The notes below the pieces were generated by a model. That model ran no database searches, had not been told where the DNA came from, and was given only the letters and a program-made list of their open reading frames with translations. A stretch of DNA of 64,000 nt. Origin: Patescibacteria group bacterium. GTDB lineage: Bacteria > Patescibacteriota > CPR2 > UBA1875 > CAIMLA01. Made by a program: the position numbers and the translations under genes. Location: the NCBI GenBank assembly GCA_041738615.1, contig JBGSPL010000004.1:65203-129202 (forward strand), read 5' to 3'. Shown here piece by piece: positions 1 through 19,884 of the stretch; position 1 is the first letter of the stretch; the number at the start of each line of letters is the position of its first letter.

Positions 1-379
1 GGCTAGCTGAATCGGCAGCCGCTAGTATCTTAGCTTCTATGGTTTCTGGTTGGACATCCCTACATCGATGCGATCTCACACAATGAGCAACCGCATCTGT
101 TTTAATATCCGAGTATTGGAGATCTTTAAGAAAAGCCCTGGCCTCGGTTTCGGCCTTCTTTGCATGATCCTTATTCCTATCTCCAAATGTTTGCCCAATA
201 TCATGGAGCCAGACCGAAACCAAAACAACTTCTTTGTCAGCCTCGGGATAATCTTTCCGCAATTTATTTGCCCACTTCTCAACTGTTTCAACATGACGAG
301 GCAAATACGGATAAGCGTCTGCTTTGCCCGCCTCGAATTTATCGAGAAAGTGTTGTTTAGTCTTTTCTACGATATCCAC
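1..379 (-). CDS. HD-domain phosphohydrolase (partial, continues beyond window start); GTG start at 379
   Basis: Reverse-strand translation reads VDIVEKTKQHFLDKFEAGKADAYPYLPRHVETVEKWANKLRKDYPEADKEVVLVSVWLHDIGQTFGDRNKDHAKKAETEARAF... with H..HD metal-binding signature; 4-nt overlap with upstream gene stop. Confidence 0.6.
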   Translation of the reverse strand, partial: MDIVEKTKQHFLDKFEAGKADAYPYLPRHVETVEKWANKLRKDYPEADKEVVLVSVWLHDIGQTFGDRNKDHAKKAETEARAFLKDLQYSDIKTDAVAHCVRSHRCRDVQPETIEAKILAAADSAS

Positions 380-769
380 TTATATCACCCCAAGGTACTT
401 TAGAACTATTAAAATAACAATAAGCCCCTCGGCGACTGCGACAACTGGTAAAGCGCCTGGAATAATAGCAATATTTCTGGTTAATTCTTTAACATTGCCT
501 GTCCAGTGAGGGAACTCATCGAGCACTAGCCCTAGGCCGACACCATAAAGAATCGGGATGAGATAGTTGGCCGGGCTAACGCCTAGGCCGATTACTAGAA
601 AACTAGCAAAAACGATAAGTATGTTTCCCCAAACAAAGTGATGGGAGCGTTTGCCATTTGAAAGGACATCGAGTGGTAATATGTGCCATTTTAGTACCGC
701 AAAGCTAAGCAATCTGGCAATTACGACGGTTAGCAATATAGCAAAGAAAATTATTATTAGTTGAATCAT
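380..769 (-). CDS. small integral membrane protein (4 predicted TM helices), unknown function
   Basis: ORF 129 aa, hydrophobic helices; overlaps neighbours by 4 nt (operon with YtoQ-like/DUF/HD genes). Confidence 0.5.
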   Translation of the reverse strand: MIQLIIIFFAILLTVVIARLLSFAVLKWHILPLDVLSNGKRSHHFVWGNILIVFASFLVIGLGVSPANYLIPILYGVGLGLVLDEFPHWTGNVKELTRNIAIIPGALPVVAVAEGLIVILIVLKYLGVI

Positions 770-1224
770 ACCAAAACACTCCCAGCATAATAAAACACAT
801 AAACATGCTTATCATCTTTAGTAATTTGTTCCGTACCGCCAATCTCGTTTATACCATCGGTTGAAGCTGGATCGCAGGTGTATATAAAGCCATCTTTTTC
901 CCACTCAACCTTTTTGTACAATCTAGTTTCTTTATTATTGATTAGTGCCCCACGGAGAATATTATCGATTTCCTCCTCAGTCATATCGCCCCAGTTTCCG
1001 TAATAACTCACACCAAAGATGGGTTTATTAAGGTAGAAAACGGTTTCCATGCCGTAAAAGGTGTTTTTACCAGTGTAGTAAACGTCACGGTAGAGCCAAT
1101 CACTCTCCTTATATTCCAGTTGGGTCGAATTATTCAGTGCGGCTTTGACCCTTCCCTCATCGGAAGCATAGGTATTCGCTCTCGCCTTAATCAAGAAGGG
1201 CTCTAGTTGTTCTAACTTGTTCAT
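766..1224 (-). CDS. hypothetical protein, possibly DUF5680-like (G.E.VF....P.W.M.Y.G pattern)
   Basis: 152-aa ORF; motif FYGMETVFYLNKPIFGVSYYGNWGD; family assignment from memory only. Confidence 0.45.
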   Translation of the reverse strand: MNKLEQLEPFLIKARANTYASDEGRVKAALNNSTQLEYKESDWLYRDVYYTGKNTFYGMETVFYLNKPIFGVSYYGNWGDMTEEEIDNILRGALINNKETRLYKKVEWEKDGFIYTCDPASTDGINEIGGTEQITKDDKHVYVFYYAGSVLV

Positions 1225-1607
1225 TTCATCTCCTCAAGTATAGCAATAGCTTCTTCAATATTCTCGACGATTCGACCTGTTTTCCGCACGAATTCTATCG
1301 ACCAATCAATGCGTTCTTTTGGCCAAATAATTATTAGGTTTTCGCAAAAATCACCAGGACTTTTTGTATGGGTTGCGATAAAGTAGCCGACTTCTATCCA
1401 AGTCCCTTCACAAGGTGTTGTCCCTGTGCTGGCAATTAATATGTCAGCTTGTTTTACGGCCGAGAGATCATCGGGGTAAAAGGTTTCGGAAGATGATTGG
1501 TTGGAATGGAGTTCGGGATCAAAAAAGTCAAAATCTTTAACTTTGGAGATTTCATTCTTCCACTTATCATATTCTTTAAATTGTCCCGCTAAATATACCT
1601 GCTTCAT
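1221..1607 (-). CDS. YtoQ-like / nucleoside 2-deoxyribosyltransferase-like family protein
   Basis: N-terminus MKQVYLAGQF.. and Rossmann-like pattern typical of YtoQ/NDT-like proteins. Confidence 0.55.
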   Translation of the reverse strand: MKQVYLAGQFKEYDKWKNEISKVKDFDFFDPELHSNQSSSETFYPDDLSAVKQADILIASTGTTPCEGTWIEVGYFIATHTKSPGDFCENLIIIWPKERIDWSIEFVRKTGRIVENIEEAIAILEEMK

Positions 1608-1662
1608 GTCAGCATTATAACTTAATTTGGCCTAAATCTTAAGTTAAATGGGGTAAAACGAG

Positions 1663-1696
1663 AAGAGCCCCTCCGCCGAATGGCGAAGGGGCTCCT
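1663..1696 (-). terminator. GC-rich hairpin (gagcccctccgcc/ggcgaaggggctc) at left boundary of high-GC segment; probable terminator of minus-strand island operon
   Basis: 13-bp stem with one mismatch, followed on minus strand by U-containing tract. Confidence 0.45.
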
Positions 1697-1739
1697 TGGT
1701 AGTTCCTCGTGGAACTGTGGTACAAGCAGCTGCGTGCTA

Positions 1740-2006
1740 CTAGACGGTCGCGTCCTGCGACTTGTGTTGGTTGCCTCTGCTCTGCCACCACTCCTTCAGA
1801 TGATCCTCTACCCAACCAGCGCCCATAAGAAGCGCGCCGCAGGCGAAGATGAGGACCGTACCGAGTGCCGGGACCAGAAAGAAGGTCGTGACGTCGGGGG
1901 CGGTCTGGAGCTGGAGCCGAACCATCAGGAACTCGAGGAAGAAGAGTCCGGCGTAGACTTCGCCCACGACCCTAGCGTTCCCCCAGGTGCTGCGGATGAA
2001 TTTCAT
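1740..2006 (-). CDS. small 2-TM membrane protein (island gene C), unknown function
   Basis: 88-aa ORF with strongly GC3-rich codons and SD aaggaggcgg upstream; inside high-GC segment. Confidence 0.45.
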   Translation of the reverse strand: MKFIRSTWGNARVVGEVYAGLFFLEFLMVRLQLQTAPDVTTFFLVPALGTVLIFACGALLMGAGWVEDHLKEWWQSRGNQHKSQDATV

Positions 2007-2043
2007 GATCTTCCGCCTCCTTGGCGAGAGTGGCGTGCCTGCT

Positions 2044-2430
2044 CTAGTTGTCCTCCTGATGAATGACGCGCAGGGCGACTTCGCAGACGGGTTTCAAGTC
2101 GCTGTCCAACTCGATGTTGGCCTCGATGAAGCCACCGAGACCAGTAGTGGTCTCTGAGCTGGCGAAGGTGTGGGCCTTCTCGTCGTAGGTGAACACCCGG
2201 ACGAAGAAGTGCGGCAAGACGATGTGATCGGCCCCTTCGGCCATGCCGATATAGGTGACCTTGGTCTCCGCGACGAGCACAACGCCTTCGCCGTAGCAGA
2301 CCTGACCGTCAACCGCTAGCGTGCCTCCTACCACTTTATTGATGGCGAACGTGATGGCGGCCTTGATCTCCTTCTCCTTCTCAGAGTAGTCGTCGCCCTC
2401 GTGGACGACCATTTCCTGGAGCCGCTTCAT
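2044..2430 (-). CDS. hypothetical cytoplasmic protein (island gene B)
   Basis: 128-aa GC3-rich ORF, tightly spaced between genes A and C. Confidence 0.45.
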   Translation of the reverse strand: MKRLQEMVVHEGDDYSEKEKEIKAAITFAINKVVGGTLAVDGQVCYGEGVVLVAETKVTYIGMAEGADHIVLPHFFVRVFTYDEKAHTFASSETTTGLGGFIEANIELDSDLKPVCEVALRVIHQEDN

Positions 2431-2456
2431 GGTGTTGCCTCCTTGGCGAATCGTAA

Positions 2457-3026
2457 TCAGCAGGCGAATTCGGATACCGTGACCTTGATGTTGAAAAGAA
2501 CCTCGCAGTCCATGCCTTCGTCGATCTTCTTGATGTCGGTGATGATTGCCGTGTAGGCCTGAAACCCGCAGAAGTTGACCATGAACCCGATGAATACCGG
2601 CTCAGCCGTACCGCGCTTGGCGCGGACTTCAGGGGTCCAAATCTCAGTGCACACGATCTCGAGATGGCCCTCATGAGCGTACAGCTCACGCAGGCTCTCG
2701 GTGTCGAGCAGGTAATCCAATACCTTCTCTTTCATGTAGCGACTGATGTGACAGGTCTTCAATGGCTCCAGCTGGAACTCGAAGTCGAGGCTTCCACGCT
2801 CCTGCTGATACTGATCCTGGATCAGCTCAACCTCCGGTCGGGGCTTGCGGAGTCGTTCGATCAGCGCCCCAAGGACTCGCTTGATCTCGTCGCCTTGTTC
2901 GTTGACGTTCTGGGCTTCTCCTTCTTCGAGTCTTGCGCCATCGTAGACCGCGTCCACAACCTTGCCGAACTGGAGACCTTTCGGGTCTCGAGACGTGATC
3001 AATGCCGCATCGGGCATCGTCATCAT
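2457..3026 (-). CDS. hypothetical cytoplasmic protein (island gene A)
   Basis: 189-aa GC3-rich ORF; no recognisable domain by eye. Confidence 0.45.
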   Translation of the reverse strand: MMTMPDAALITSRDPKGLQFGKVVDAVYDGARLEEGEAQNVNEQGDEIKRVLGALIERLRKPRPEVELIQDQYQQERGSLDFEFQLEPLKTCHISRYMKEKVLDYLLDTESLRELYAHEGHLEIVCTEIWTPEVRAKRGTAEPVFIGFMVNFCGFQAYTAIITDIKKIDEGMDCEVLFNIKVTVSEFAC

Positions 3027-3261
3027 CTCCTTTCAGCTCTAATCCTGCTTTTTGAATGCAGAATTCGTGCTCCCCAATGGAGCACTATGTCCCTACGGGA
3101 CAGTAACCAAGTTACATGTATGCAAACTGATTACTGCCTCGAAGGATTTTGAAGGTACAATAACAAGCTACTATACCACGAAGAATGCCTATTTGTCAAC
3201 CGTTTCGTGGCTACTCTGGGCGGTTCGAGTCCCACGCGGTTGCAACAAAAAAACACGGATT

Positions 3262-3298
3262 CTTGCGAAAACGTGTTATTTTTTGTGCGTGACTTCAG
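3262..3298. terminator. intrinsic terminator hairpin (aacacg...cgtgtt flanked by A/T runs) downstream of tRNA-Asp
   Basis: aaaaaaacacggattcttgcgaaaacgtgttatttttt. Confidence 0.6.
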
Positions 3299-3327
3299 GC
3301 ATTCCGGTCACACAGAACGAACAAATT

Positions 3328-3405
3328 TGGCGATCCAGATGGGACTCGAACCCACGACCTCCGCCGTGACAGGGCGGCGCTCTAACCAGCTGAGCTACTG
3401 GACCG
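3328..3405 (-). tRNA. tRNA-Asp (anticodon GTC)
   Basis: Reverse complement folds as cloverleaf: acceptor CGGTCCA/TGGATCG, anticodon loop cCTGTCAc, T-loop GGGTTCGAGTCCC, 3' CCA encoded. Confidence 0.9.
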
Positions 3406-3624
3406 TGTGAGCAAAGCGGCTGCTTTGCGAACATTCTTTGGTATATTTCGATGAAGGCAGATGCGCTGTCACCGCTATATATCGGAGTAATTATAGCGTA
3501 TTTTGCCGACTATTTCAAGAGTAATGAAAAACTATTTCCAACCATATATTAAGAATAAAACATTGTAAAAAGCGAGAAAAGGTGGTATCATACTGTTTCG
3601 TGTCCATCCAGGGGAAGGAATCAT

Positions 3625-3996
3625 ATGTGTCGAGGTCTGCGGATTCACAGCCACACGGCTGAAGGCATCACGGTCCTTGAGGTTCGCCTCGAAGGTCTCT
3701 GCGACGGAAACATGGTCTACGACCTTGTCATGTTGCGCGATCGTCTGCTCAACCAAGAGGATGCCGATGTCATCATTGACGCCAGCAATGCGTTGGTGAT
3801 GCCGGGTGCGCCCGAAGGCGTGCTTATCTCTCTCGGGAGAGAGCTCGCGCAGCGAGGCAAGATGCTTCACTACGTAGTGGGGAACGACAACCGGCCCAGC
3901 ATGGCTGATCTGACTACGAAGTATCGGGGCATTTCGTTCCACAAGACCCTGACTTCGGCGTTGGAATCGGCCGGAGCGGTCACGGTCGCGGCATAG
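3625..3996 (+). CDS. STAS-domain protein (anti-sigma-factor antagonist-like)
   Basis: 123 aa; VLEVRLEGLCDG...VIIDASNALVM...FHKTLTSALES pattern typical of SpoIIAA-like STAS; GC-rich; SD ggggaagg upstream. Confidence 0.55.
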   Translation: MCRGLRIHSHTAEGITVLEVRLEGLCDGNMVYDLVMLRDRLLNQEDADVIIDASNALVMPGAPEGVLISLGRELAQRGKMLHYVVGNDNRPSMADLTTKYRGISFHKTLTSALESAGAVTVAA

Positions 3997-4136
3997 CTGC
4001 GAAGACGGGGCACCTGCGCATAGCAGGTGCCCTGCGTCCATTTATGATACAAACGTTAATTATATAGCTGACAATATCGTTTTTTCGTGGTAGAATGGCT
4101 TCGACATGCACTTTCCGACGCCTATAGGAGGCAACC

Positions 4137-4847
4137 ATGGAAGGGCCATTTGCACCTGAAATCATGCCTCCGTTTATGCGAGGCGAAGATGTGCGGAAGA
4201 GCACGCAGTTCTACTGGCGACTTGGCAGGATCGTCGACATCATCTCGTCGGCAGCCTTCAAGTTTGCCATCGATGGGCTCGAGAATCTGCCCGACGACAC
4301 TGGAAGTGTGTTGGCGCCGAATCACGACAACGCGTTCGACCCAATCCTAGCTTCGCTATTGCACTGTTCCTGGTGCCTGCCGATCCACTGGCTGGCGAAG
4401 ATCGAGCTCTTCGGTGAGCTGCGTTTTGAGGTTGGTAATCGTCTCATCGTGATTCCCCCCGGGAAGATGACCAAGTTCATGTACGCTGTGCGCTGTATTC
4501 CGATCACTCGCGAGAAGCCAGAGCTCCAGTCCTTCAAATCCGTGAAGGCCATACTGGGGAATGGTGGAGTCGTTGGTATCTTTCCCGAGGGGACGCGGAA
4601 CAAGGACGGCAAGAAGGAGACTACGAGCGATCTGAAGGGCGGCGCGATCAAGTTCGCCCAGATGGCGGGCGTACCCGTGGTACCGCTCTTGATGAAATCG
4701 ACGATGCCGTCACTCTGGCCGCTGCGCCGAGGGACATTCGTCATCAAGTACGGCATACCGTTCCTCCCGACTCGTGATCAAACGATCGAGGAGCAGCTCG
4801 AGATGCTACGCCAGTCCATGGCCTCACTCGGCTGCTTCGACTACTAG
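4137..4847 (+). CDS. 1-acyl-sn-glycerol-3-phosphate acyltransferase family (PlsC/LPLAT)
   Basis: H(X4)D motif APNHDNAFDP and FPEGTR motif; GC-rich codons. Confidence 0.8.
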   Translation: MEGPFAPEIMPPFMRGEDVRKSTQFYWRLGRIVDIISSAAFKFAIDGLENLPDDTGSVLAPNHDNAFDPILASLLHCSWCLPIHWLAKIELFGELRFEVGNRLIVIPPGKMTKFMYAVRCIPITREKPELQSFKSVKAILGNGGVVGIFPEGTRNKDGKKETTSDLKGGAIKFAQMAGVPVVPLLMKSTMPSLWPLRRGTFVIKYGIPFLPTRDQTIEEQLEMLRQSMASLGCFDY

Positions 4848-4983
4848 GCCACCAAGGAAAGGATGCTCGATGAAAGAGCCACCCGATCCGCGGTGGCTCT
4901 TTCTGTACCCAACTTTATCTATAAATGAAGCAGCCCCCATCGCAATATTGCGATGGGGGCTGCGCGTTTCGTGTGGTCCCTTA

Positions 4984-5799
4984 CTAAGGGACTGTCGTGG
5001 AAGTCGACGCAGACCAGTGTGCTTGGTACTTTACCGGAATCTGGTAGTCCGCGTCCTCGTAGTCGACTTGGATATGGAAGTCCGCCTCGCTAGCTTTCGC
5101 GGCCTCGTTGTTGTAGATCTCAGCGTTCAGGTCCCGATCTACCGCGAGGGCGTGAATCTTGTCCCAGGTGAGCTTTCGTTGCTCGGCGACTAGGGTAGCC
5201 GACAGGGCGCCGTCGTACGATGTGGCCACGTCTAGGACGGCGATTTCTTCATCGATGTCTCGTACTTTGCGGTGCATTTCGTGGAACCAGAGTGCTTCCT
5301 TCTCGAGAGCGGGGACGTAGATGTCGGTGAACGTCGTCGTCTCTAGCTCATCCATTCCAAAGAACTTGTCTATAGTCCTGAAGCGCTCTTTCGAGACCTC
5401 GATACGGGGGTTGCGTTCATTCTTGACGTAATACACAGTAGGGGAGCCAGTGACTTCGGTCGACTCCCCTCGCACGTAGATCGTGGCCGTCCTCGGCTGG
5501 CCCTCAGTACTGCGAGACACTACGTAGTAGGGCTTCCCTGGGATACGGTCGAGAGAAGCTGTTTCTTTGACCTGTGGGACTGTGAAGAGCACGCTAAGAC
5601 CCGCTACGCCAAAGACGATGATCAGTAGGACGGCGATGCCCAGGGAGAACGCAAAGGCACTGCTAGCCCTGACCTTCTTCGGCCAGTCCCGGTCGTTGCG
5701 AAGTCTTCGGTAGATCAAGGGGGCTCCTACGGCTGTGATGAGGAGCCAAACCAAGAACGTCAGTGACAGAGCAGTGATATGGATGCCGAGAATGTACAC
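4984..5799 (-). CDS. membrane-anchored hypothetical protein (2 N-terminal TM helices plus extracytoplasmic domain)
   Basis: 271-aa GC-rich ORF; right end of high-GC segment. Confidence 0.45.
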   Translation of the reverse strand: MYILGIHITALSLTFLVWLLITAVGAPLIYRRLRNDRDWPKKVRASSAFAFSLGIAVLLIIVFGVAGLSVLFTVPQVKETASLDRIPGKPYYVVSRSTEGQPRTATIYVRGESTEVTGSPTVYYVKNERNPRIEVSKERFRTIDKFFGMDELETTTFTDIYVPALEKEALWFHEMHRKVRDIDEEIAVLDVATSYDGALSATLVAEQRKLTWDKIHALAVDRDLNAEIYNNEAAKASEADFHIQVDYEDADYQIPVKYQAHWSASTSTTVP

Positions 5800-5914
5800 G
5801 GTGTGTCCTTCCGTCGATGGATTTTGGAAACGCGCACCAGCATTTTACTATGAGAGAGCGTTTCTGTCCATATATTCAATCTATAATTAAATTCAAATCC
5901 ACTAAAGATTAAAG

Positions 5915-7882
5915 TTAGTTCAGATAGTCCTTGAATAGGTTTCTCTTAATAAGTGTACTTACCGCCTTGTCGATTTCGGCCCTCTTGGTCAGTAGTGTGT
6001 TGCATTCTGCGATTTCGAGTTCCGTTCGCTTCTTGTCGACGTATTTGCTGCAAGAAAGAGAGGTGTTGTTGTTTAGATAGCGAAGGTTTTCCGAGTAGAT
6101 TTGCTCGTAGTTATCATCAAAAGTATTGGTGTAGAAGAAGGGGGGTTCGCTGCCAAAGAGATCCCGGCCAAACATCGGGGAGGTCGGCTTGGCTCCAACC
6201 AGGTTGAGGATAGTGGGCATAATGTCGAGGTGCGAACTAGGGCTATTAATCCTCTTACCAGTCGTCTGGGCAGGAAGCTTAATGACTAGCGGTACTCGTT
6301 TTCCGGCGAGAGAATCTGGCTCTATCCTCGTTGTATCTGTATCGAAGCCGTCAAAATGGGCAGTATGATCGCCGTATAGCACGATTAGTGAATCGTTGTA
6401 GAGGCCGTCTGCCTTTAGCTTCTCAAAAAACTTTCCGAGGCTGGCATCGGTATAGTGGACTGCCTGTAGATAGTCATGGGTAAGGCTCGTGTATTTGTCG
6501 CGATTTAAAGTGAGAGTTTGATACTCCTTTGCCATCTCGAAGGAGAAATGGCTAGACAACGTAATTAGGTAACTCAGAGTGGTAGTAGGAGTAGCTTTTA
6601 TGTAATCGGCTGACTGGAAGAGGAAGTCTTCGTCCGAGAGTCCCATATTGACCGTTTTACCTGGCTTGTAATTGTCGGAGGCCATGAATCTATCGAACCC
6701 AAGCGACTTGTACATCGTGTTTCGGTTCCAGTACCCACGGCTGTTTGCGTGATATGCTTCGGTGTTGTATCCGCTCTTCTTGAGCTCCTTTTCTAAACTG
6801 GTAAAGCTATCCTTGGCGTACTTTACAAAGACAGAAGAGTCGGCGAGTGGGTAGAGAGAGGTATTTACCGAGAAATCAGCATCGGAGGTGCCGCCGGCGC
6901 CGAGTGTAAAGTAGTTGTTGGTAAAATAGTTTGAACCGGAAATTAGTTTGTTGATGTTCGGTGTGATTTCTTGTTTTTCGACCGACGCACCAATATTGAA
7001 ATCATTCAGAGACTCTACTTGGACCATAATGACACGCTTACCAGCAGCTATTCCGGTGGTTTTATTGGGTGCCAGCTTGGTTGTATTGGCTTTTAGCGTC
7101 GCGATGGTTTCTTCTTTGTCTAGAGGGCTGAGGTTGGTAAATGCCACTACAAAATTACGTGAGAAATCGAGAAGATGAGTGCTGATAACGCCGATATTCT
7201 TGGCCACCACCTTGTTCTCCGAGGTCTGGTTATAGAAAAAGGGCAGCTTGGTCGCAAGGTCGCTATAGAAGATGGCAAGGATCGTTGCGATAGGGAGCAC
7301 AGCTACAGCGAACCTTGCCTTTTTGCTGAGGCGACTCACTGGTATCACAGGGAAATCGATGCGTTTACGACGACGCCTGTGGATCCATATAAAGATGATA
7401 TCTAGTATCAGGATAATGTCGGAGTAGGACACTAGCTTGCTTATCCATGACGGCAAATCGGCAATTAGCTGCCCTCCCGTCCCGAGCATGCTCATCACAG
7501 GCAGGGTACCAAAGAAGCGGATGTAGTAGCTATCTCCGAGAAGAACTAGTGTGAGTACGATATCCATAACGAAAAGGTAAGTGGCTCGGCGCCCTCGGAT
7601 AAAGAGCTCAGGAATGGCTATGACCCAAGCAACCACCAGACTATATGCGAGGAATGGAACGAGGTTTTCCGCGTTGGGCCACAGATCGTTCGTGGCGCTA
7701 AAAATCACCAGTTTCACAAAGAAAATGAGGGCAAAAGTAATGACGATACGCTCTCTCACGTACCTGGATTCGTCCACGACTGTTGTTTTGTGGGGAGACC
7801 AGAATTTATGGAGCTCCCTGGGAATCGATTTTATATATTTACTTAATTTCATCCCAACTATAGTAACAAATTTTACGGACAA
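5915..7882 (-). CDS. LTA synthase family protein (LtaS-like sulfatase/phosphoglycerol transferase); start uncertain (TTG at 7882 or ATG at 7852)
   Basis: N-terminal multi-TM region followed by sulfatase-like domain with YGDHTAHF and GGTSDADF motifs. Confidence 0.75.
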   Translation of the reverse strand: MSVKFVTIVGMKLSKYIKSIPRELHKFWSPHKTTVVDESRYVRERIVITFALIFFVKLVIFSATNDLWPNAENLVPFLAYSLVVAWVIAIPELFIRGRRATYLFVMDIVLTLVLLGDSYYIRFFGTLPVMSMLGTGGQLIADLPSWISKLVSYSDIILILDIIFIWIHRRRRKRIDFPVIPVSRLSKKARFAVAVLPIATILAIFYSDLATKLPFFYNQTSENKVVAKNIGVISTHLLDFSRNFVVAFTNLSPLDKEETIATLKANTTKLAPNKTTGIAAGKRVIMVQVESLNDFNIGASVEKQEITPNINKLISGSNYFTNNYFTLGAGGTSDADFSVNTSLYPLADSSVFVKYAKDSFTSLEKELKKSGYNTEAYHANSRGYWNRNTMYKSLGFDRFMASDNYKPGKTVNMGLSDEDFLFQSADYIKATPTTTLSYLITLSSHFSFEMAKEYQTLTLNRDKYTSLTHDYLQAVHYTDASLGKFFEKLKADGLYNDSLIVLYGDHTAHFDGFDTDTTRIEPDSLAGKRVPLVIKLPAQTTGKRINSPSSHLDIMPTILNLVGAKPTSPMFGRDLFGSEPPFFYTNTFDDNYEQIYSENLRYLNNNTSLSCSKYVDKKRTELEIAECNTLLTKRAEIDKAVSTLIKRNLFKDYLN

Positions 7883-7927
7883 TGGTTAGGTTGCCGTGAT
7901 GCGCAAATATTCTGGTATAATCGTTCT

Positions 7928-9091
7928 ATGAAAAGACTACGAGTCGTAACACCACTGATATTTCTCTTCGCAGTCGCTACTGGCTACTTTTTGTATCTTA
8001 CTTTCAGCGGGCACATCACACCGAACCCAGTATCGGACGCGGTAGTTGCTAGCGTACGTCCCTACCCAACACTGACAAGTCCAAAGAATGTAACCTTGAA
8101 TTGCGATTATCATGGCGAAAATGTTGCAGTGACCGAAACTCTCTACGGCAGTCTCGCGGACTACTATCGCAATAATCCAGCCAAATACAGTGCCTTCTAT
8201 CACAACCAGAACGAGAAATACGTTTTTAGCTACAAACAAGACCCCACTATCTCTGACCTCACCAGCAAGATTAAGAAAATAGGGGTAGATAAAGGGCTGG
8301 ACAGGGATCGAACGCTCGATTTGGCAACGTGTTTACTGCAGAGTATCCCATATGATAATGAAAAGGCAGCACGAATTCTGAGCCCTGACTATTACAAACT
8401 AGCGGCCAATCAGTTAGTGCCACGCTACCCGTACGAGACTCTCTATGAAGGTAAGGGGATCTGTACCGATAAGTCGTTTCTAGGAGCGGCAGTATTTCTG
8501 GAGCTTGGATACGGGACATCGCTGCTCACTTTTGACAGCCAGCGCCATATGTCTATCGGGGTCTCGGTTCCCGACGGGATGGGTGACTTTGGGACGGATT
8601 ATGGCATAGTGGAGCTTACCGGTAGTAATTTCCTAGTAGGAGATATCCCTGAGATTAGTGGCAATGCTGGCCTTGCAGTGGGCGGAGTCCAGACTATACC
8701 GAACGTGACAACGGATAGTACTGTCGCTGCGGAAAATAGAACGGTCCTCTCGGCGCTTAGTGCTACAATTCCAATTTCCTCTGGCGCTATCTATAGCCGT
8801 ATAAGTGCAAGGATGGCTCTAAAAAACGAGATATCTACGCTTCAACCCCAGCTCGCGAGCAGCAGGAGTAGCTATTTAAATCTAAAAGCCGCCCTCACGG
8901 CCTCAGAGGAGGAGCTTCAAAAAACTGAGTCTAGCTACAAGCAGAGTCCGACAAGCGCGAGCTATTCTCGCTATACGACATCGTATAATTCGTACCTTAG
9001 CGCCTATAATGCCGCAACCACTGCCGTTGATGAATACAACTCACTCGTAAACAAATACAACGAGCTAGTGGCTAAGTACAAGGAATTTTAG
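7928..9091 (+). CDS. membrane-anchored protein with transglutaminase-like (Cys-His-Asp) core and low-complexity S/T/Y-rich coiled C-terminus
   Basis: GKGICTDKSFLGAAVFLELGYGTSLL...QRHMSIG resembles transglutaminase-like cysteine protease fold; assignment tentative. Confidence 0.4.
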   Translation: MKRLRVVTPLIFLFAVATGYFLYLTFSGHITPNPVSDAVVASVRPYPTLTSPKNVTLNCDYHGENVAVTETLYGSLADYYRNNPAKYSAFYHNQNEKYVFSYKQDPTISDLTSKIKKIGVDKGLDRDRTLDLATCLLQSIPYDNEKAARILSPDYYKLAANQLVPRYPYETLYEGKGICTDKSFLGAAVFLELGYGTSLLTFDSQRHMSIGVSVPDGMGDFGTDYGIVELTGSNFLVGDIPEISGNAGLAVGGVQTIPNVTTDSTVAAENRTVLSALSATIPISSGAIYSRISARMALKNEISTLQPQLASSRSSYLNLKAALTASEEELQKTESSYKQSPTSASYSRYTTSYNSYLSAYNAATTAVDEYNSLVNKYNELVAKYKEF

Positions 9092-9151
9092 TTGAGAGAA
9101 TGGCTGATTTCTGTTAAAATAGGCGTTGTTTCCAGCTAATTTCTGGGAATT

Positions 9152-9204
9152 GGGGTCCCCTAAAATTCGAAGCATTTTAGGGGAGGAGGAAGTGCAGTGA
9201 CAGG
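9152..9204 (+). repeat. tRNA-upstream conserved hairpin element, copy 1 (GGGGTCC - 10-bp hairpin - AGGAGGAAG.GCAG), 53 nt upstream of tRNA-Gly
   Basis: cccctaaaat/attttagggg perfect stem; homologous copies at 9430..9480 and 24070..24122 with covarying stems. Confidence 0.5.
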
Positions 9205-9256
9205 GCGTAGTAAATATCAATTAGTATTTACGGAGCGCGATAGCTCGTACTGAAGC

Positions 9257-9330
9257 GCGGGTATAGTTTACCGGTAGAACGTGACCTTCCCAAGGTCGAG
9301 AAACGGGTTCGATTCCCGTTACCCGCTCCA
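9257..9330 (+). tRNA. tRNA-Gly (anticodon CCC)
   Basis: Acceptor GCGGGTA/TACCCGC, anticodon stem TGACC/GGTCG, loop ttCCCaa, T-loop GGGTTCGATTCCC, CCA encoded. Confidence 0.9.
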
Positions 9331-9429
9331 GCGTCAGCGTAAGCTGACGCACTACACGAGTTAGCCAAAGGCTAATCATTTCGTGCTATCGCACGCCTCC
9401 TTTTCCGAGAAAACCTTGCGGTTTATCTC

Positions 9430-9480
9430 GGGGACCGACAAAAATGAAGTTTTTGTCGGAAGAGGAGGAATCGCGGCAGG
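9430..9480 (+). repeat. tRNA-upstream conserved hairpin element, copy 2 (GGGGACC - hairpin ccgacaaaaa/tttttgtcgg - AAGAGGAGGAA.GCGGCAGG), 53 nt upstream of tRNA-Thr
   Basis: Same architecture and flanks as copies 1 and 3. Confidence 0.5.
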
Positions 9481-9532
9481 ATGAAGACGTTGAATTTCTT
9501 CAATCGTCGGAATCCGAAAGCGGATTCCGACG

Positions 9533-9607
9533 TGCCGATGTAGCTCAGGGGTAGAGCAGCACTTTCGTAAAGTGTTGGTCGGTGGTTCGATTCCACTCAT
9601 CGGCTCC
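9533..9607 (+). tRNA. tRNA-Thr (anticodon CGT)
   Basis: Acceptor GCCGATG/CATCGGC, D-arm AGCTCAGGGGTAGAGC, anticodon loop ttCGTaa, T-loop GGTTCGATTCC, discriminator U, CCA encoded. Confidence 0.9.
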
Positions 9608-9646
9608 AGTAATATCATTTGAAGTTGGATTGGAATATAATACAGA

Positions 9647-10043
9647 TATGTCGAAGCTTACGAAATTATTTGAAAAGTATCGGACAAAAGCAATCCATGA
9701 TTTTGGGACTTCTTTTTATCATGATCCTGTGATGTTAGGGATGGCCTCTCTATTTGTGGTGCAATTAGTTTCATTACTGCTACTCCTAATATTCCGTGTG
9801 CAACCCGGGTCCGTTGTGCCACTTACCTACAATGTAGTTTACGGGGTTACCTATTCGTCTACATGGTTTGGGCCGTATTATTATCTTCTAGCTCTTGCTG
9901 GTTTTGGAGTGATCAACTATCTGATTGCATGGGCTTACTTTGACAAGGAGCGCCTGCTTTCTTACCTGATTGCGTGCGTGAACATCTTACTAGCGGCACT
10001 GATGATCTTATACATCTTTAACCTTACCGCCCTGGTCTCGTAA
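9647..10043 (+). CDS. small polytopic membrane protein co-transcribed with GT2 glycosyltransferase (stop overlaps next start, taATGa)
   Basis: Start taken at ATG 9647 (MSKLTKLF...) because the ORF-track start at 9582 lies inside tRNA-Thr. Confidence 0.5.
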
Positions 10044-11671
10044 TGAAGAAAGACCTTGTAGATAACCGAGTATTTACCCGATTTTTGGAGATTGCGCCCG
10101 GCTTTGTGGCGCTTTCTTACCTTATTCTACCTTTTCTATTGGCTCCGACTTTCCCTATAGTAGTCGCGTATTTCATCTTGGCTTTTAACTTTTACTGGTT
10201 TATAAAGGCCATAAATATCATGAGGCATATGATAAACGGTTTTAGGCACATGTGGCACGATATGAAGGTGGATTTTCTGTCTCGCGCCAAGTTGGCCACG
10301 AGTAATCCCGCCAAGCTAGAAAAGGAGCTGCGGGATAAGTACGAGAAGAGCAACAATCGTCTGGATTATTTGGACTGGTTGGAGTTTTCGCATCTCGAGG
10401 GTAGATACGACAACATCAAAAACTGGGAAGACGTCTATCAAGTTGTCTTTGTTACTAACTATCAGGAAGAGTATTACATCACGGAATCTACTTTTCAGGC
10501 ACTGAAGGACTCTAATTTTCCGAACGATAGAATCATCGTGGTATCCTGCGGCGAAAAGCGTGATGAAGAAAACTACCTTCAGGTCCAGGCCGAGATCGAA
10601 AAGAATTTTGGCGGGGTATTCCGCGACATGCATTTCTACATGCACGATGTAATGCCGGATGAGGTCATCGGCAAAGGTGGAAATCTCTACTCAGCCATGA
10701 CTAAATTCTACAAGGTATTTAAGGAAAAATATTCTGACGTTCGTCCTGAGAACGTGATTTGCACGACCCTCGACGGAGACCATATCCCGCACAAGGAGTA
10801 CTTTGCAGAGATCACCTATAAGCACATCATCGATCCCGACCGCGATCGAAAGACCTACCAGCCAAATATACTAATGTTCAACAATATTTGGGACGCTCCG
10901 TCTCCAAGCCGAGTGTTAGCGGTAGCTTCTAGTTTTTGGCAGATGGTGGAGTCGATGCGACCTTACCGTTTGCGTACATTTGCTTCCCACTCGCAGAGCC
11001 TAGCTACGCTAATCACTACAGATTTTGTATCGCGATATACAATCGTTGAGGATGGCCACCAGTATTGGCGCACCTACTTTGCATTTAACGGAAATCACGA
11101 GATGATGCCGATATATGTTCCGATTTATCACGACACAGTACTGGGGAACAACTTCTGGGAGACGCTCAAGAATCAATACAAACAGCGCCGCCGCTGGGCT
11201 TGGGGCATCTCGGACTTTCCATTTATCATCAAAAACTATATGCGCCACCCAGAAATCCCTTTTTGGGAGAAGTTTATACAGACCTACCGCCATGTCGCAG
11301 GGCACATCTCTTGGTCCACCTCGTCTTTCCTACTGGCCTTTGCCTGGATACCCCTCCTTTTTAACAGTTCTTTTCAAGACACAGTGCTTGCACATAATGT
11401 ATCTATCTATAGCTCGATGATGCTCAAACTGGCCTGGATTGCGGTCTTTGCCAACGCCTGGCTCTACTTCCTGCTTCTGCCACCGCTACCAAAGCGCTTC
11501 GAGAAAACGCGAGTTCTGCGCTATGCCGGAATGGTCTTCCAGTGGGCGATTGCTCCCTTTGTACCGATATTACTTTCATCATTACCTGCCCTAGAGTCGC
11601 AGATTCGGTTAATGTTTGGGCAAAGCCTAAATGTTTTTTGGACGACACCGAAGGTCCGCGGCAGGGACTAG
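10043..11671 (+). CDS. family 2 processive glycosyltransferase (cellulose-synthase-like)
   Basis: N- and C-terminal TM helices, TLDGDH (DxD-like) and QRRRW (Q.xRW) motifs. Confidence 0.8.
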   Translation: MKKDLVDNRVFTRFLEIAPGFVALSYLILPFLLAPTFPIVVAYFILAFNFYWFIKAINIMRHMINGFRHMWHDMKVDFLSRAKLATSNPAKLEKELRDKYEKSNNRLDYLDWLEFSHLEGRYDNIKNWEDVYQVVFVTNYQEEYYITESTFQALKDSNFPNDRIIVVSCGEKRDEENYLQVQAEIEKNFGGVFRDMHFYMHDVMPDEVIGKGGNLYSAMTKFYKVFKEKYSDVRPENVICTTLDGDHIPHKEYFAEITYKHIIDPDRDRKTYQPNILMFNNIWDAPSPSRVLAVASSFWQMVESMRPYRLRTFASHSQSLATLITTDFVSRYTIVEDGHQYWRTYFAFNGNHEMMPIYVPIYHDTVLGNNFWETLKNQYKQRRRWAWGISDFPFIIKNYMRHPEIPFWEKFIQTYRHVAGHISWSTSSFLLAFAWIPLLFNSSFQDTVLAHNVSIYSSMMLKLAWIAVFANAWLYFLLLPPLPKRFEKTRVLRYAGMVFQWAIAPFVPILLSSLPALESQIRLMFGQSLNVFWTTPKVRGRD

Positions 11672-11724
11672 CTGGAACTAAAAATAGCTACTGATTCCTT
11701 TGCAATCAGTGGTACAATATAGTC

Positions 11725-12057
11725 ATGGATGAGAGAAACTTTTCTAATATTTTTCGCAAAGCTACCGGGCACTTTTTTTGCCCGGCTTGTGGTAGTAAAT
11801 ACAGCGGGACCGAGATTGAATCTATCGAAAGACATGAACAGGGATATTTAGTATCCGTAGCTTGTGCCAGCTGTAAGCTAAAGCTCTCGATGCAGGTGGT
11901 GACAAAAGGCTTTGGACCAGCCGCAGAAAGCACAGACTTCGACGATGCTGACATTTCGGTGGACGAGATTATCGATTTTCATGAAAGACTAAAAACCTTT
12001 GATGGTAATTTTAGGCGAGTTTTTACCTCTAGGATTGACCAAAACCGCTTATTTTGA
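11725..12057 (+). CDS. hypothetical zinc-ribbon protein (CPAC...CASC)
   Basis: 110-aa ORF with two Cys pairs. Confidence 0.4.
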   Translation: MDERNFSNIFRKATGHFFCPACGSKYSGTEIESIERHEQGYLVSVACASCKLKLSMQVVTKGFGPAAESTDFDDADISVDEIIDFHERLKTFDGNFRRVFTSRIDQNRLF

Positions 12058-12158
12058 TAGAATGAGTCAGCTGAAGTGTAACTTCGGCTTATTTCTTAGC
12101 TTAGAATTTACTTTATAAACATCACACTTTATAGCTGAAGTGACCGGAAGGAACGATA

Positions 12159-12848
12159 ATGGGCGAAAAAGAGAAACTAGTTGCAAAAGAGAGAACTGTT
12201 AAGGGTAAGCAAGTACGAGCACTCAGAAATGCCGGGCTTACACCTGTTGTAATCTATGGTAACGATCGTAAACCAGTAGCGCTAGAGGTGAATTCACACG
12301 ACTTCGCATTGCTTTATCGTAAGGCTGGAGGTAACACCATCGTGGCTATGGATATCGAAAAAGAAGACGGCACTAAAGAGCGCAAGAACGTACTGATTCA
12401 CGAAGTTGCGATTGATGGTGTCAAGGGACACATCCTTCATGCTGATCTTTTGCAGATCAACATGAAAGAGAAGCTTACAACAAATATTCCGCTGAAGTTC
12501 GTAGGTGATTCCCTGGCAGTTATCGACTTGCAGGGTTCACTCCTCGAGGCTCTAGACGAGATTGAAGTAGAGTGTCTGCCATCTGACCTTCCTCACGAAA
12601 TCGAGGTTGACCTTGCATCTCTTGTAGACTTCGACGCCGTGATTCACGTTTCTGACATTGTGGTACCCGAGGGTGTCACCGTTCTTACCGACCCAGAGGC
12701 TACCGTAGCTCACGTAGAGGCTCCACGTAGTGACGAAGAGCTCGAAGAGCTAGAGGAAACCCCGGAGGCCCCAGAAGCACCAGAGAGCGAGCATGGTGAA
12801 GCCGAGGAGGCCACAGAGACAACTGAAGGCGAAGCAAAAGCCGAATAG
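12159..12848 (+). CDS. rplY: 50S ribosomal protein L25/general stress protein Ctc, with acidic C-terminal tail
   Basis: TVKGKQVRALRNAGLTPVVIYG... L25 signature; SD ggaagg 8 nt upstream. Confidence 0.85.
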   Translation: MGEKEKLVAKERTVKGKQVRALRNAGLTPVVIYGNDRKPVALEVNSHDFALLYRKAGGNTIVAMDIEKEDGTKERKNVLIHEVAIDGVKGHILHADLLQINMKEKLTTNIPLKFVGDSLAVIDLQGSLLEALDEIEVECLPSDLPHEIEVDLASLVDFDAVIHVSDIVVPEGVTVLTDPEATVAHVEAPRSDEELEELEETPEAPEAPESEHGEAEEATETTEGEAKAE

Positions 12849-12862
12849 CAGAGATTTGATAC

Positions 12863-12893
12863 AAAACCGCCCCTATACACTGGGGCGGTTTTT
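12863..12893 (+). terminator. intrinsic terminator after rplY
   Basis: ccgcccc-tatacact-ggggcgg followed by ttttt. Confidence 0.8.
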
Positions 12894-12910
12894 GATTATA
12901 ATTATTCGTA

Positions 12911-13984
12911 ATGAAACTATCTCTACCAAATCTCCGCCAAATCAAGGGATTTCTATACAAATACCGCATAAGTGTGGCGATTATCTTCGTGGCCCTTGTT
13001 GTAGCCGGAGGGGCTACAGGATATGGGTTAACCAGAAATATCTCAGTTGATTTCGGACCGCTGAAACTCAAAGAGAAGGTGGAGACTAGGGTCCCAGCAC
13101 CGCTCACCGGTGAGCTCGTGGATCCAGCAGTAATCACAAAACGCCCAATCGCTGTGGTTATCGAGAACCATCCAGACGCAAGGCCACAGAGCGGTTACAA
13201 CGACGCTGACATTGTCTATGAGACCCTAGCCGAAGGTGGGATTACTCGCACTTTGGCAATTTTCCAGTCCAAGAGCAGTACCGAGATTGGGCCGGTTCGT
13301 TCGGCTAGGTCGTATTTTGTAGACTGGCTGACCGCCTACGGGGCACTTTTTGGTCATGTCGGTGGTAATGCTGACGCACTTGATTTGGTTTCGCAGATAG
13401 GGGTCGCTGATCTTAACCAATTCTACAACGGAGGAAACTATTGGCGCTCCGCTGATCGATACGCCCCTCACAATGTCTATACAACCACAGACAAACTCTA
13501 TGCAGCCGCCAAGGCAAACAATCTCTCAACTTCGGCGATAGTTGCGGGGCTCAAGTTCAAGAAAGATGTTGCCGAGAAGGATCGTCCGGCAAGCCAGGAT
13601 GTCAACATTGAGTTTTCATATGACGATTTCACTGCGGGCTACAGCTATGTGCCCAAAACCAATACGTATTTGCGCTCAAACGGAGGTGTGGCTGCCAAGG
13701 ACAAGAACACGGGCGCGCAGATTGCACCCAAGAACGTCATCGTAGAATTCACCTCCATCGTGCCTTATATAAACTACGCTGCAGAGCAGGGAGTGCGAAT
13801 TACGGATATTGGAAGCGGTTCGGGATACCTTTTTCAGGACGGCAAGACGACGAAGATTACTTGGACGAAGAGCTCAAGAGAAGCGCGGACAAAGTATGTT
13901 GACGAAACTGGCAAGGAAATTGAGCTTAATCCTGGGCAAACCTGGATTGAGGTAGTCCCTACCGGAAATAGTGTGACTTTCTAA
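12911..13984 (+). CDS. DUF3048 domain-containing lipoprotein-like protein (YerB-like)
   Basis: N-terminal TM/signal anchor; AVVIENHPDARPQSG...ADIVYE..EGGITR motifs typical of DUF3048. Confidence 0.65.
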   Translation: MKLSLPNLRQIKGFLYKYRISVAIIFVALVVAGGATGYGLTRNISVDFGPLKLKEKVETRVPAPLTGELVDPAVITKRPIAVVIENHPDARPQSGYNDADIVYETLAEGGITRTLAIFQSKSSTEIGPVRSARSYFVDWLTAYGALFGHVGGNADALDLVSQIGVADLNQFYNGGNYWRSADRYAPHNVYTTTDKLYAAAKANNLSTSAIVAGLKFKKDVAEKDRPASQDVNIEFSYDDFTAGYSYVPKTNTYLRSNGGVAAKDKNTGAQIAPKNVIVEFTSIVPYINYAAEQGVRITDIGSGSGYLFQDGKTTKITWTKSSREARTKYVDETGKEIELNPGQTWIEVVPTGNSVTF

Positions 13985-19846: not shown

Positions 19847-19854
19847 ACACTTTA

Positions 19855-19884
19855 AAAACCGCCCAGAAGCCTGGGCGGTTTTTG
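19855..19884. terminator. bidirectional intrinsic terminator between convergent genes
   Basis: aaaaaccgcccag-aagc-ctgggcggttttt. Confidence 0.8.

Follow-up and report, generated by a model that had tools for sequence, protein, structure and literature searches.

Phage morons, a concept of Hendrix and Juhala, are autonomous promoter–gene–terminator insertions of atypical composition. A different kind of unevenness, variation in the GC content of third codon positions (GC3) within one bacterial genome, was reportedly described by Lassalle et al. in 2015 in connection with GC-biased gene conversion (gBGC) or selection, with contrasts said to be much smaller than the one considered here. Among diversity-generating retroelements (DGRs), about 20% deviate by at least 5% from host GC, which Wu et al. 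read as recent transfer (PMC5758913). Here, we analyse a 64-kb stretch of bacterial chromosome (the window), in which a GC-rich segment of 4.2 kb at positions 1640–5830 surrounds a native tRNA-Asp gene. To the left of this tRNA lies a three-gene operon (p189, p128, and p88; the p189 cassette), and to its right lie the genes for p123, a PlsC-type acyltransferase, and the membrane protein p271.

We find that the locus is composite, with a mobile cassette left of the tRNA and resident genes right of it. On balance, we favour an accessory locus at a native tRNA-Asp in which the mobile cassette and the resident genes keep a GC-rich codon usage that is maintained. That this usage is a maintained property of a gene class, and not the residue of a recent import, we hold with moderate confidence; as its cause we infer, as the leading explanation, gene-specific selection on synonymous sites. 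The compositional observation that started this work was confirmed as a whole, and its original interpretation—one recent horizontal acquisition or a chimeric join at a tRNA gene—is partly supported.

The comparison with morons holds in several respects. The p189 operon and the other units of the locus are self-contained, have their own promoter and their own or a shared terminator, and differ in composition from their neighbours; for the p189 operon these are a predicted promoter at 3199–3170 and a factor-independent terminator at 1696–1663. In addition, a phage protein carries the module that forms the N-terminus of p189. Unlike morons, however, the cassette has three genes, stereotyped spacers with ribosome-binding sites (RBS), and a long structured leader, and the anomaly is common to resident chromosomal genes, in one of which, PlsC, it persists through saturating divergence. 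Among the window genes that we scanned with Pfam (a subset comprising the open reading frames (ORFs) of the GC-rich stretch, flanking genes, and others), no phage genes lie near the p189 operon.

Composition of the GC-rich stretch

The original prediction placed an abrupt switch in GC and GC3 at about 1640 and about 5830, and recomputed sliding-window GC, GC3, and tetranucleotide profiles reproduce it. GC content is 55.0% between these positions, against 46.3% in the remainder of the window and 46.8% on average; among 1-kb intervals (mean GC 0.469, sd 0.029), only those between 1501 and 5500 lie more than 2 sd above the mean, and the stretch is the sole one of its kind in the 64 kb. Both edges hold, coinciding on the left with a GC-rich terminator hairpin at 1663–1696—foreseen in the original prediction—and on the right with the spacer that bears the p271 promoter.

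The shift follows the genes. ORFs of the stretch have a GC3 of 0.70–0.82 (for p88 and p123 overall GC, 0.58–0.60, was taken in place of itemised GC3), compared with 0.475 ± 0.056 and a maximum of 0.58 in at least 50 other ORFs of the window. Coding sequences reach 57.2% GC in the stretch and 46.6% elsewhere, whereas its spacers, at 45.7%, stay near the 43.5% of intergenic DNA elsewhere; GC is as low as 0.39–0.49 in the promoter-bearing spacers and around tRNA-Asp, so that the stretch is not uniform. Amino acid usage resembles that of the host (Ala 8.2 vs 8.6%, Gly 7.1 vs 7.4%) and not that of Actinobacteria, and codons end in C or G (TTC 0.80, TAC 0.87, ATC 0.80, AAC 0.73, GAC 0.71, CAC 0.74, AAG 0.79, GTC 0.50), with G-ending AAG, GAG, CAG, ACG, and CCG likewise enriched. 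The GC shift stays within ORFs and affects synonymous positions almost exclusively. Raw tetranucleotide distance sets the stretch well apart from the rest of the window (z = 8.9). After correction for base composition the signature is mildly atypical (tetranucleotide usage deviation correlation 0.426, z = −2.5) and, because it falls within the range of ordinary intervals (the lowest at 0.352), we regard the anomaly as an effect of GC and third positions and not as a foreign "dialect".

The AT-rich spacers had been said to carry sigma70-like promoters, and the stretch does contain eight such sites, against 2.4 ± 1.6 expected. The features of the locus are as follows; handles beginning with L denote contigs of related or matching genomes, the relatives each being seen over 9–22 kb.

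1663–1696, minus strand: left boundary of the stretch, marked by the predicted intrinsic terminator of the p189 operon (15-bp stem with 10 G–C pairs, T tail; module at about 1646–1729)
1740–2006, minus strand: p88, small third gene of the cassette, an orphan with transmembrane (TM)-like segments at residues 13–31 and 36–66
2044–2430, minus strand: p128, soluble, second gene of the cassette, an orphan with a GC3 of 0.82; its conserved RBS spacer is at 2431–2456
2457–3026, minus strand: p189, first gene of the cassette, GC3 0.73
3027–3165, minus strand: predicted structured 5′ leader of about 140 nt, its 5′ end placed from the promoter position
3170–3199, minus strand: predicted p189 operon promoter, TTGACA-18-TATAGT with an extended −10 TG (11/12 consensus matches)
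3173–3243, plus strand: degenerate tRNA-Glu-like remnant, called by ARAGORN at a relaxed threshold only and overlapping the p189 promoter
3328–3404, minus strand: native tRNA-Asp(GTC), found by ARAGORN and Rfam (69.2 bits), 97% identical to the copy in L006
3518–3490, minus strand: predicted tRNA-Asp promoter, TTGAAA-17-TATAAT
3563–3591, plus strand: p123 promoter-like site, TTGTAA-17-TATCAT with TG (9/12 matches)
3625–3996, plus strand: p123, predicted STAS fold (SpoIIAA/RsbV-like), with orthologs in L006 (52%) and L020 (29%)
4068–4096, plus strand: PlsC promoter-like site, CTGACA-17-TAGAAT with TG (10/12 matches)
4137–4847, plus strand: PlsC-type acyltransferase (PF01553, E 1.5e-19, 70.5 bits against a cut-off of 23)
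4930–4963, no strand assigned: perfect 34-nt palindrome (17 + 17 nt, 100% complementary) where the convergent PlsC and p271 genes meet, returned by the terminator scan and probably a bidirectional terminator
4984–5799, minus strand: p271, membrane protein with N-terminal TM-like segments at residues 1–31 and 43–78 and a conserved soluble C-terminal domain
5842–5870, minus strand: p271 promoter-like site, TGGACA-17-TAAAAT (10/12 matches), and right boundary of the stretch; the spacer 5800–5914 has a GC of 0.37

Laid out in this way, the stretch would comprise four self-contained transcription units around tRNA-Asp, each with an AT-rich spacer bearing a sigma70-type promoter; the p189 operon would end in its own hairpin, and PlsC and p271 would share the bidirectional terminator.

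The assembly is sound. In run SRR28170474, one Logan contig (L001) equals window positions 4934–7913 at 100% identity and breaks exactly at the 34-nt palindrome 4930–4963, and another (L002) carries p189, p128, and p88 together with the deoxyribosyltransferase-like gene of the left flank. In L006, L013, L014/L015, L016, L020/L021, and L004/L005, which stem from different species and samples, these genes have the same neighbours and stand out by the same GC contrast. The chimeric join that the original prediction had offered as one explanation is refuted as far as assembled contigs allow.

Two further ideas about the composition were considered and rejected. A DGR-like footprint of A-specific depletion does not apply, A and T being equally depleted at third positions, and dual coding through long antisense ORFs was set aside since the antisense frame opens automatically once TTA, CTA, and TCA codons are avoided. 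PHROGs and PADLOC gave no significant match to any protein of the stretch or of the L004 cassettes, and all-against-all BLASTP showed the GC-rich proteins of different genomes to be unrelated except for orthologs. Our literature search on GC3 heterogeneity or GC-rich islands in Saccharibacteria found nothing relevant.

A mobile cassette at a tRNA-Asp hot spot

The window derives from a Saccharibacteria bacterium. Scanning reference genomes with the LtaS-like protein of the flank identified L006, a Candidatus Saccharibacteria metagenome-assembled genome (MAG) whose LtaS is 83% identical and whose flanks are 73–80% identical to the window at the DNA level; being the closest relative, it bears out the guess of an epibiotic host from the candidate phyla radiation (CPR). 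The remainder of the window is that of an ordinary Saccharibacteria chromosome, with genes for MurT/GatD, ThrRS, IF3, L20, L25, and Nramp and for RNase P RNA. For other homologs, the protein search tools carried no taxonomy, and lineage was taken from contig context.

The tRNA-Asp announced within the segment is indeed there, and its two sides behave differently. A tRNA-Asp gene on the minus strand lies 180–250 nt upstream of a plus-strand PlsC homolog in L013, L014, and L016; the first of these also keeps the TTGAAA-17-TATAAT promoter, the other two the gene and its orientation. The order tRNA-Asp–PlsC is therefore conserved backbone, present in at least four Saccharibacteria of about 36–47% GC, the window included. 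The block that follows downstream in the window (tgl, a gene for a 542-aa protein, L25, DUF3048, Nramp, racemase, and MurD) recurs in L013 and L014/L015. In L006, the gene order is LtaS, a two-component system, the p271 ortholog, a 151-aa gene, the p123 ortholog, a GIY-YIG gene, and tRNA-Asp.

Beyond the 3′ end of tRNA-Asp, by contrast, the DNA differs in all five genomes (window, L006, L013, L014, and L016), and this tRNA is a conserved integration hot spot. In the window, the 3′ flank holds the tRNA-like remnant and the p189 operon. As in classical tRNA-associated islands, the flank is hypervariable, recombinases sit at the same tRNA in L014 and L016, and the p189 cassette lies there; unlike in such islands, GC-rich DNA lies on both sides of the tRNA, and the right half of the stretch is conserved backbone. 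The suggestion that the tRNA served as an integration site thus stands for the left part, where presence varies at a conserved site, and fails for the right, PlsC being always beside the tRNA. As had been noted, neither an integrase nor a flanking direct repeat came to light: Pfam found no integrase or recombinase among the ORFs of the stretch and the other window genes scanned, and the window contains no att-type direct repeat of the tRNA-Asp end, though the left end of an element at this site may lie beyond the window start. Nor is any part of the stretch repeated elsewhere in the window. The remnant at 3173–3243 has a 13-nt T-arm, GGTTCGAGTCCCA, in common with tRNA-Asp, yields no Rfam tRNA call, and has no second copy in the window, where its fragment 3222–3244 is unique and lies on the strand opposite to tRNA-Asp. 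It may be the relic of an old integration site.

The variable flanks of the relatives are of interest in themselves. In L014, positions 1–9856 form an island of GC 0.29–0.35 with an OLD-family nuclease, MutH, and a Dcm methylase, and a gene for a 534-aa serine recombinase runs with its 3′ end into the 3′ end of tRNA-Asp. Next to its own copy of this tRNA, L016 (1620–7119) encodes a serine recombinase as well as a type ISP restriction enzyme. Low-GC and high-GC cassettes are mixed in L013, whose host GC is 36%: one GC-rich cassette (1319–2297) has three small genes (GC3 0.57–0.65), two of them membrane-protein-like by translation, and another (5068–6603) is a pair of 348 and 159 aa (GC3 0.61–0.66). 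Both are unrelated in sequence to the cassette proteins of the window, and a Nuc_deoxyri_tr2 gene occurs in the same flank. In L006, low-GC genes accompany a GC-rich cluster (18703–21881, GC3 0.62–0.75) in which two ORFs are radical-SAM/SPASM-like by the CxxxCxxC motifs of their translations, with two small Cys-rich ORFs alongside; judged from these translations, it may be a cluster for a ribosomally synthesized and post-translationally modified peptide (RiPP).

The three-gene cassette proposed at 1740–3026 is a minus-strand operon. Its first protein, p189, consists of an N-terminal module of about 60 aa ('MMTM..LITSRDPKG..AQxxNExG') and a C-terminal 'TVSEFA' module, and has one true homolog, P0002 (55–56%), among 5.8e9 proteins. 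P0002 is encoded in L004/L005, contigs from two samples that are 99.99% identical and belong to a genome of 31–37% GC. Because p189 is 56% identical to this protein while the MurD proteins of the two genomes are only 32–39% identical, we judge the cassette to be mobile. The L004 genome is probably that of a CPR bacterium too, because its 23S rRNA gene (9724–13040) spreads model positions 1–2454 over 3317 nt, with about 860 nt extra; rRNA insertions are a CPR trait.

More than the protein is common to the two loci. In L004, the homologous block (56–61% GC, GC3 0.68–0.77) consists of two unrelated gene pairs in tandem, bracketed by repeated low-GC units of about 350–450 nt, each with a terminator hairpin, a repeat, and a TTGACT-17-TAAGAT promoter. 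The leader, the RBS spacers, and the terminator are common to the window and L004 cassettes, and homology begins at about the expected start of the transcript. The window leader is homologous to L004 2352–2503 (plus strand), the terminator is 74% identical over 85 nt to those after both L004 cassettes, and the junction sequence TCGCCAAGGAGGC precedes every downstream gene (4/4 junctions in the window and L004), including that of p88, even where the genes are unrelated. When sought in L006, L013, L014, L015, and L016, the RBS, terminator, and leader motifs of the cassette were absent, being specific to the window and L004. The spacer units themselves, at about 120–500, 2032–2500, and 4166–4440 of L004, are 78–92% identical and give a layout like that of a cassette array; small ORFs within them are probably spurious. 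This tandem arrangement recalls integrons in its gene pairs between repeated spacers and in the stereotyped junctions across cassettes. It differs from them in that the repeats carry promoters and terminators, each cassette being transcribed alone, and in that the window has a single cassette without repeats. Neither an integrase nor an attC-like site was identified at the cassettes, though no dedicated attC search was made.

The p189 leader is predicted to fold into five helices, all 40 pairs of which are kept in both sequences, with six compensatory changes against 0–2 in slid controls (from two sequences only). Its outer stem pairs UCCUU with the Shine–Dalgarno (SD) region, which makes it a candidate SD-sequestering cis-regulatory RNA. 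No Rfam family matched the leader. Its motif CATAGTGCNNCATNGGGNNGCACGA was found in metagenome contigs only in L004 again and in L018, and in no viral contig; the match in L018, uniformly 60% GC and without similarity to the cassette, was taken as chance. Neither p88 nor p128 matched Pfam, PHROGs, or PADLOC, and an AlphaFold2 model of p189 from the two-sequence alignment had a predicted local distance difference test score (pLDDT) of 39.6, too low to be usable.

A second connection of the cassette leads to phages. In an exhaustive HMMER search, about 60 proteins of 73–360 aa (P0126–P0184 listed), all unnamed metagenomic singletons, matched p189 at residues 1–60 only. The full pattern of this module is MMTM..LITSRDPKG..AAYNKAKL..AQxLNERG; it has no Pfam family match, and the C-termini that follow it vary. 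One further protein, P0167, joins Clp_N repeats to the C-terminal module of p189 (residues 112–190). The N-terminal module is also found on the IMG/VR contigs L022 and L023, from phage with an SU10-type capsid and portal. L023 carries a complete DGR (seen also in L022) with a reverse transcriptase (RT; PF00078, 5946–7049, minus strand), a template repeat (TR; about 7390–7530, minus strand), and a target gene (about 8001–8900, plus strand). Of the 28 mismatches between TR and variable repeat (VR), 23 fall at TR adenines, with 23/30 template adenines changed. The target is a lone GC-rich gene in its replicon (GC 0.60 and GC3 0.77, against about 47% and about 0.50) and has its own consensus promoter, a long leader, and a hairpin terminator; many of the module proteins end, as it does, in a C-terminal domain ..YGSATGFL. 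Even the start contexts are alike (..GGAGATGATGACGATG for p189, ..GGAGGATGACGATG for the phage target). With DGR variable proteins of CPR bacteria and phages, p189 therefore has in common the module of about 60 aa, the start context, and the state of a lone GC-rich gene; its C-terminal part, in contrast, is unrelated to the CLec-like VR domain. We found no TR/VR pair involving the stretch in the window and no RVT_1-type RT among the scanned genes. Searches of viral contigs and GenBank phages gave no relatives of p189, p271, or p123, and the L023 target had no match among GenBank phages.

The p189 operon is a mobile, moron-like cassette related to the gene pool of phages and CPR bacteria. It would consist of a promoter, an SD-sequestering leader, three TCGCCAAGGAGGC-joined genes, and a terminator, lodged in a hypervariable hot spot 3′ of the tRNA and common, over about the length of the transcript, to the tandem cassettes of a distant 35%-GC genome. 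As its source we would name the phage or mobile gene pool of these bacteria and not an actinobacterial host, because the N-terminal module of p189 sits on GC-rich, DGR-diversified phage proteins.

Resident genes and the age of their codon usage

The genes on the 5′ side of the tRNA, p123, PlsC, and p271, are long-resident, and would have been inherited together with the surrounding backbone. The label of PlsC-type acyltransferase holds: beyond the PF01553 match, the translation shows the motifs 'NHDNAFD' (HX4D) and 'FPEGTR' (EGTR), which point to the 1-acyl-sn-glycerol-3-phosphate acyltransferase family. Five relatives at 47–64% identity make up its clade, followed by proteins at no more than 34%, and all clade members with usable context lie in Saccharibacteria-like neighbourhoods. 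The membrane protein p271 has the two TM segments ascribed to it; among 5.8e9 proteins we found only p271 itself and its L006 ortholog (56%), with a GC3 of 0.70 in both species.

The STAS label of p123 had to be qualified. By sequence it falls below the Pfam cut-offs: PF01740 did not match p123 and was sub-threshold for the L006 ortholog (E 0.054, 13.7 bits vs 22.6), and profiles of p123 found no match among PDB sequences. Support comes at the level of the fold. For a single-sequence AF2 model (pLDDT 56.7), the top 20 Foldseek matches are SpoIIAA, RsbV, and other STAS proteins or anti-sigma antagonists (E 3e-5, TM-score 0.62–0.67), so that the model assigns p123 a STAS fold. Within the locus there is no SpoIIAB/RsbW-like gene, and a DSSG-type motif is not evident in p123. 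Genes for PlsC and for a STAS-fold protein adjoin in two genomes (the window and L020 266–1610), in opposite order, and the weaker fold matches of p123 include MlaB, which serves the Mla phospholipid transporter as its STAS subunit; a lipid-related partnership of the two proteins is possible.

The age of the codon usage is judged mainly from PlsC. Its GC3 exceeds that of its host throughout, with 0.74 against 0.475 in the window, 0.67 against about 0.30 in L013, 0.66 against about 0.40 in L016, 0.66 against about 0.43 in L020, and 0.59 against about 0.45 in L014; at four-fold degenerate sites, its GC (GC4) surpasses that of the host by 0.26–0.31 in the window, L013, and L016. When the window is compared with any relative, L006 included, the four-fold sites of conserved residues prove to be saturated or nearly so. 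Third-position identity of LtaS between window and L006 is 0.33, with 0.27 expected at saturation, and the four-fold identity of PlsC is 0.25–0.32, with 0.24–0.27 expected; its synonymous sites, like those of flank genes, are saturated. After so many substitutions a deviation without maintenance should be gone; as PlsC has stayed GC-rich despite this, we consider the GC-rich state to be maintained. Its protein is 52–56% identical to the L013 and L014 orthologs, in line with flanking proteins (40–71%), so that vertical inheritance is the simplest reading.

The GC-rich genes also resemble one another. Relative synonymous codon usage (RSCU) correlates among the GC-rich sets of the window, L004, L013, L006, and the phage target with r = 0.64–0.89 (from small counts), compared with −0.65 to +0.41 when a set is matched with its own host and 0.45–0.71 between the sets and an unrelated 60%-GC contig. 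GTC is preferred over GTG in all sets, and CTC is at least as frequent as CTG in most, preferences absent from that contig. Such agreement is compatible with a shared source as well as with shared selection.

Elsewhere in the window, two small genes are nucleoside 2-deoxyribosyltransferase-like (1221–1607 and 44694–45059, both on the minus strand). A 704-aa protein with Listeria–Bacteroides/InlB B-repeat domains (20793–22907, minus strand) may be a surface protein, as perhaps may the product of a 2369-aa ORF with an unusually high GC2 of 0.51 (48495–55604, plus strand).

Competing explanations and significance

Under the explanation we favour, the GC-rich codons would be kept by gene-specific selection on synonymous sites or on the mRNA, and would not be an import that has yet to ameliorate. 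Several observations weigh against it. For p123 and p271, we estimate about 1.7 substitutions per four-fold site between window and L006, and their GC4 of 0.61–0.87 could be explained by decay from an ancestor with a GC4 of about 0.95. PlsC of L014 is nearly ameliorated (GC4 0.49–0.54, host 0.43–0.49), and the PlsC tree is not clearly congruent with the flanks, which favour L014 as the closer relative of the window while PlsC is 55% identical to L013 and 53% to L014. Three pairs (p123 window–L006, p189 window–L004, PlsC window–L016) exceed the third-position identity expected at saturation (0.46–0.53 vs 0.29–0.33), which is compatible with exchange later than speciation or with site-specific synonymous constraint. 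The argument for maintenance leans mainly on PlsC, and an unsampled GC-rich source replicon, perhaps among those that encode the roughly 60 module proteins, is possible. As to the assembly, the Logan contigs possibly come from the same reads as the source assembly, and the recurrence of the adjacencies in other genomes is the stronger argument against a chimera.

The leading rival, which we regard as possible but doubtful, is an ancient or recurrent supply from an unsampled GC-rich pool—a CPR lineage, plasmid, or phage family—whose imports are still ameliorating. The genes would have entered the hot spot and its flank at various dates, now and then giving way to xenologous copies, and selection on codons would not be required. 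The hot spot is proven, with recombinase-carrying islands beside this tRNA; transfer of the p189 cassette between distant genomes is clear; the three pairs combine less-than-saturated synonymous divergence with low protein identity, and PlsC of L014 looks the part of a gene near the end of amelioration. A common source would also yield one codon profile across genomes, and atypical-GC DGR cassettes are usually read as horizontal gene transfer (PMC5758913). Yet in six genomes and one phage such genes are always islands in a replicon of lower GC; the only uniformly GC-rich contig, L019, is just 1.2 kb long; and 5.8–15 billion proteins contain no closer homologs. The shift moreover ends at ORF boundaries and leaves amino acids host-like, and with PlsC beside tRNA-Asp in four genomes, this supply would need repeated, ORF-precise replacement.

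gBGC at a tRNA-Asp recombination hot spot, where repeated exchange would have raised the GC of genes that are swapped or act as homology arms, would account for the clustering of GC-rich genes around this tRNA in the window, L006, and L013, for the hypervariability of the locus, for the raised GC of the short intra-operon spacers (0.54–0.65), and for a slight rise in GC1. What makes it improbable is that ordinary genes are interleaved with GC-rich ones. In L006, a 151-aa gene with a GC3 of 0.42 stands between the p271 (0.70) and p123 (0.74) orthologs, the neighbouring response regulator, histidine kinase, and GIY-YIG genes having 0.48, and its syntenic counterpart beside PlsC in L014 has 0.39; such alternation speaks against any mechanism that acts on a whole region, biased gene conversion among them. 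The promoter spacers and the p189 leader are host-like, genes of the left flank lie below the genome average, and the step from 0.30 to 0.67 in L013 far exceeds what is said to have been reported for bacterial gBGC. With heterogeneity of the Lassalle type, the locus has in common a rise in synonymous GC at the level of genes that lasts over time whatever the genomic GC; the differences are the far larger contrast, the restriction to a few accessory genes at one tRNA that alternate with ordinary ones, and the occurrence of the profile on a phage gene.

The reading closest to the original prediction, in which a high-GC organism such as an actinobacterial host recently gave the whole stretch as one island at the tRNA, is now very unlikely. 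It would fit the abrupt switch beside a tRNA gene and the C/G-ending codons, which, with GTC and CTC favoured, resemble those of Actinobacteria; cultured Saccharibacteria live on Actinobacteria. The likeness to actinobacterial codon usage, however, extends to the C/G-ending codons and stops there, GC3 being 0.7–0.8 and not about 0.9, with host-like amino acids and spacers. The tRNA lies in the middle of the segment and not at its end, att repeats and, among the scanned genes, integrases are lacking, and the right half is backbone: tRNA-Asp–PlsC is conserved, p123 and p271 are syntenic in the sister species, and synonymous sites between orthologs are at or near saturation, which speaks against a single recent 4.2-kb acquisition. 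As for the donor, p189 and p271 are near-orphans, the PlsC clade is restricted to Saccharibacteria, and homologs were found only in Saccharibacteria or CPR-like contigs and in one phage, with none from Actinobacteria. When the lineages of the matches are compared, those of the right half fall in the same lineage as the flanks, so that a simple horizontal-transfer reading fails for that half.

Ordinary translational selection, in which extreme expression favours optimal C-ending codons, is equally hard to credit. The strong preference for NNC in two-fold pyrimidine boxes, the near-consensus promoters (11/12, 10/12), the strong SD, and the stable terminators would agree with it. However, L25, IF3, and L20 of the window show no GC-rich bias (GC3 0.43–0.46; 0.24 for L25 of L013), which argues against it; G-ending codons are enriched as well, and CPR genomes are reduced and belong to slow-growing organisms, in which such selection is expected to be weak. 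Finally, mis-assembly of a GC-rich fragment of another organism into the contig—a natural suspicion for a metagenome-derived genome with sharp composition breaks—has next to no probability left, given unitig-based Logan contigs that span both junctions at 100% identity, the recurrence of adjacencies and GC contrasts in independent species and samples, and a native tRNA-Asp and host-like spacers within the segment.

Composition-based island calling would label the segment as recent foreign DNA or as MAG contamination, and both labels would be wrong here. A few accessory genes of Saccharibacteria, which are epibionts with reduced genomes, retain a GC-rich codon profile; in PlsC this profile holds across genomes of 36–47% GC and through saturating divergence, and it recurs on a phage DGR target. 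Saccharibacteria depend on host lipids, and the presence of a lipid acyltransferase in the set may matter for such an organism. The analysis also brings to light new objects: an N-terminal module of cellular and DGR phage proteins, a candidate SD-sequestering leader, and a conserved tRNA-Asp hot spot.

As a tentative and rather improbable extension, Saccharibacteria, a related low-GC genome, and at least one phage would carry a distinct class of autonomously transcribed accessory genes with a functional, actively maintained recoding towards GC-rich, C-ending codons that does not depend on genomic GC, and the tRNA-Asp locus would collect and exchange such cassettes. The recoding might then couple translation to a certain tRNA pool or growth state, shield the mRNA from AU-targeting RNases or toxins or, as the most speculative option, imitate the codon usage of a high-GC actinobacterial host. 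If the profile is indeed selected, it would point to a level of gene regulation or mRNA protection that has so far gone unrecognised in CPR bacteria.

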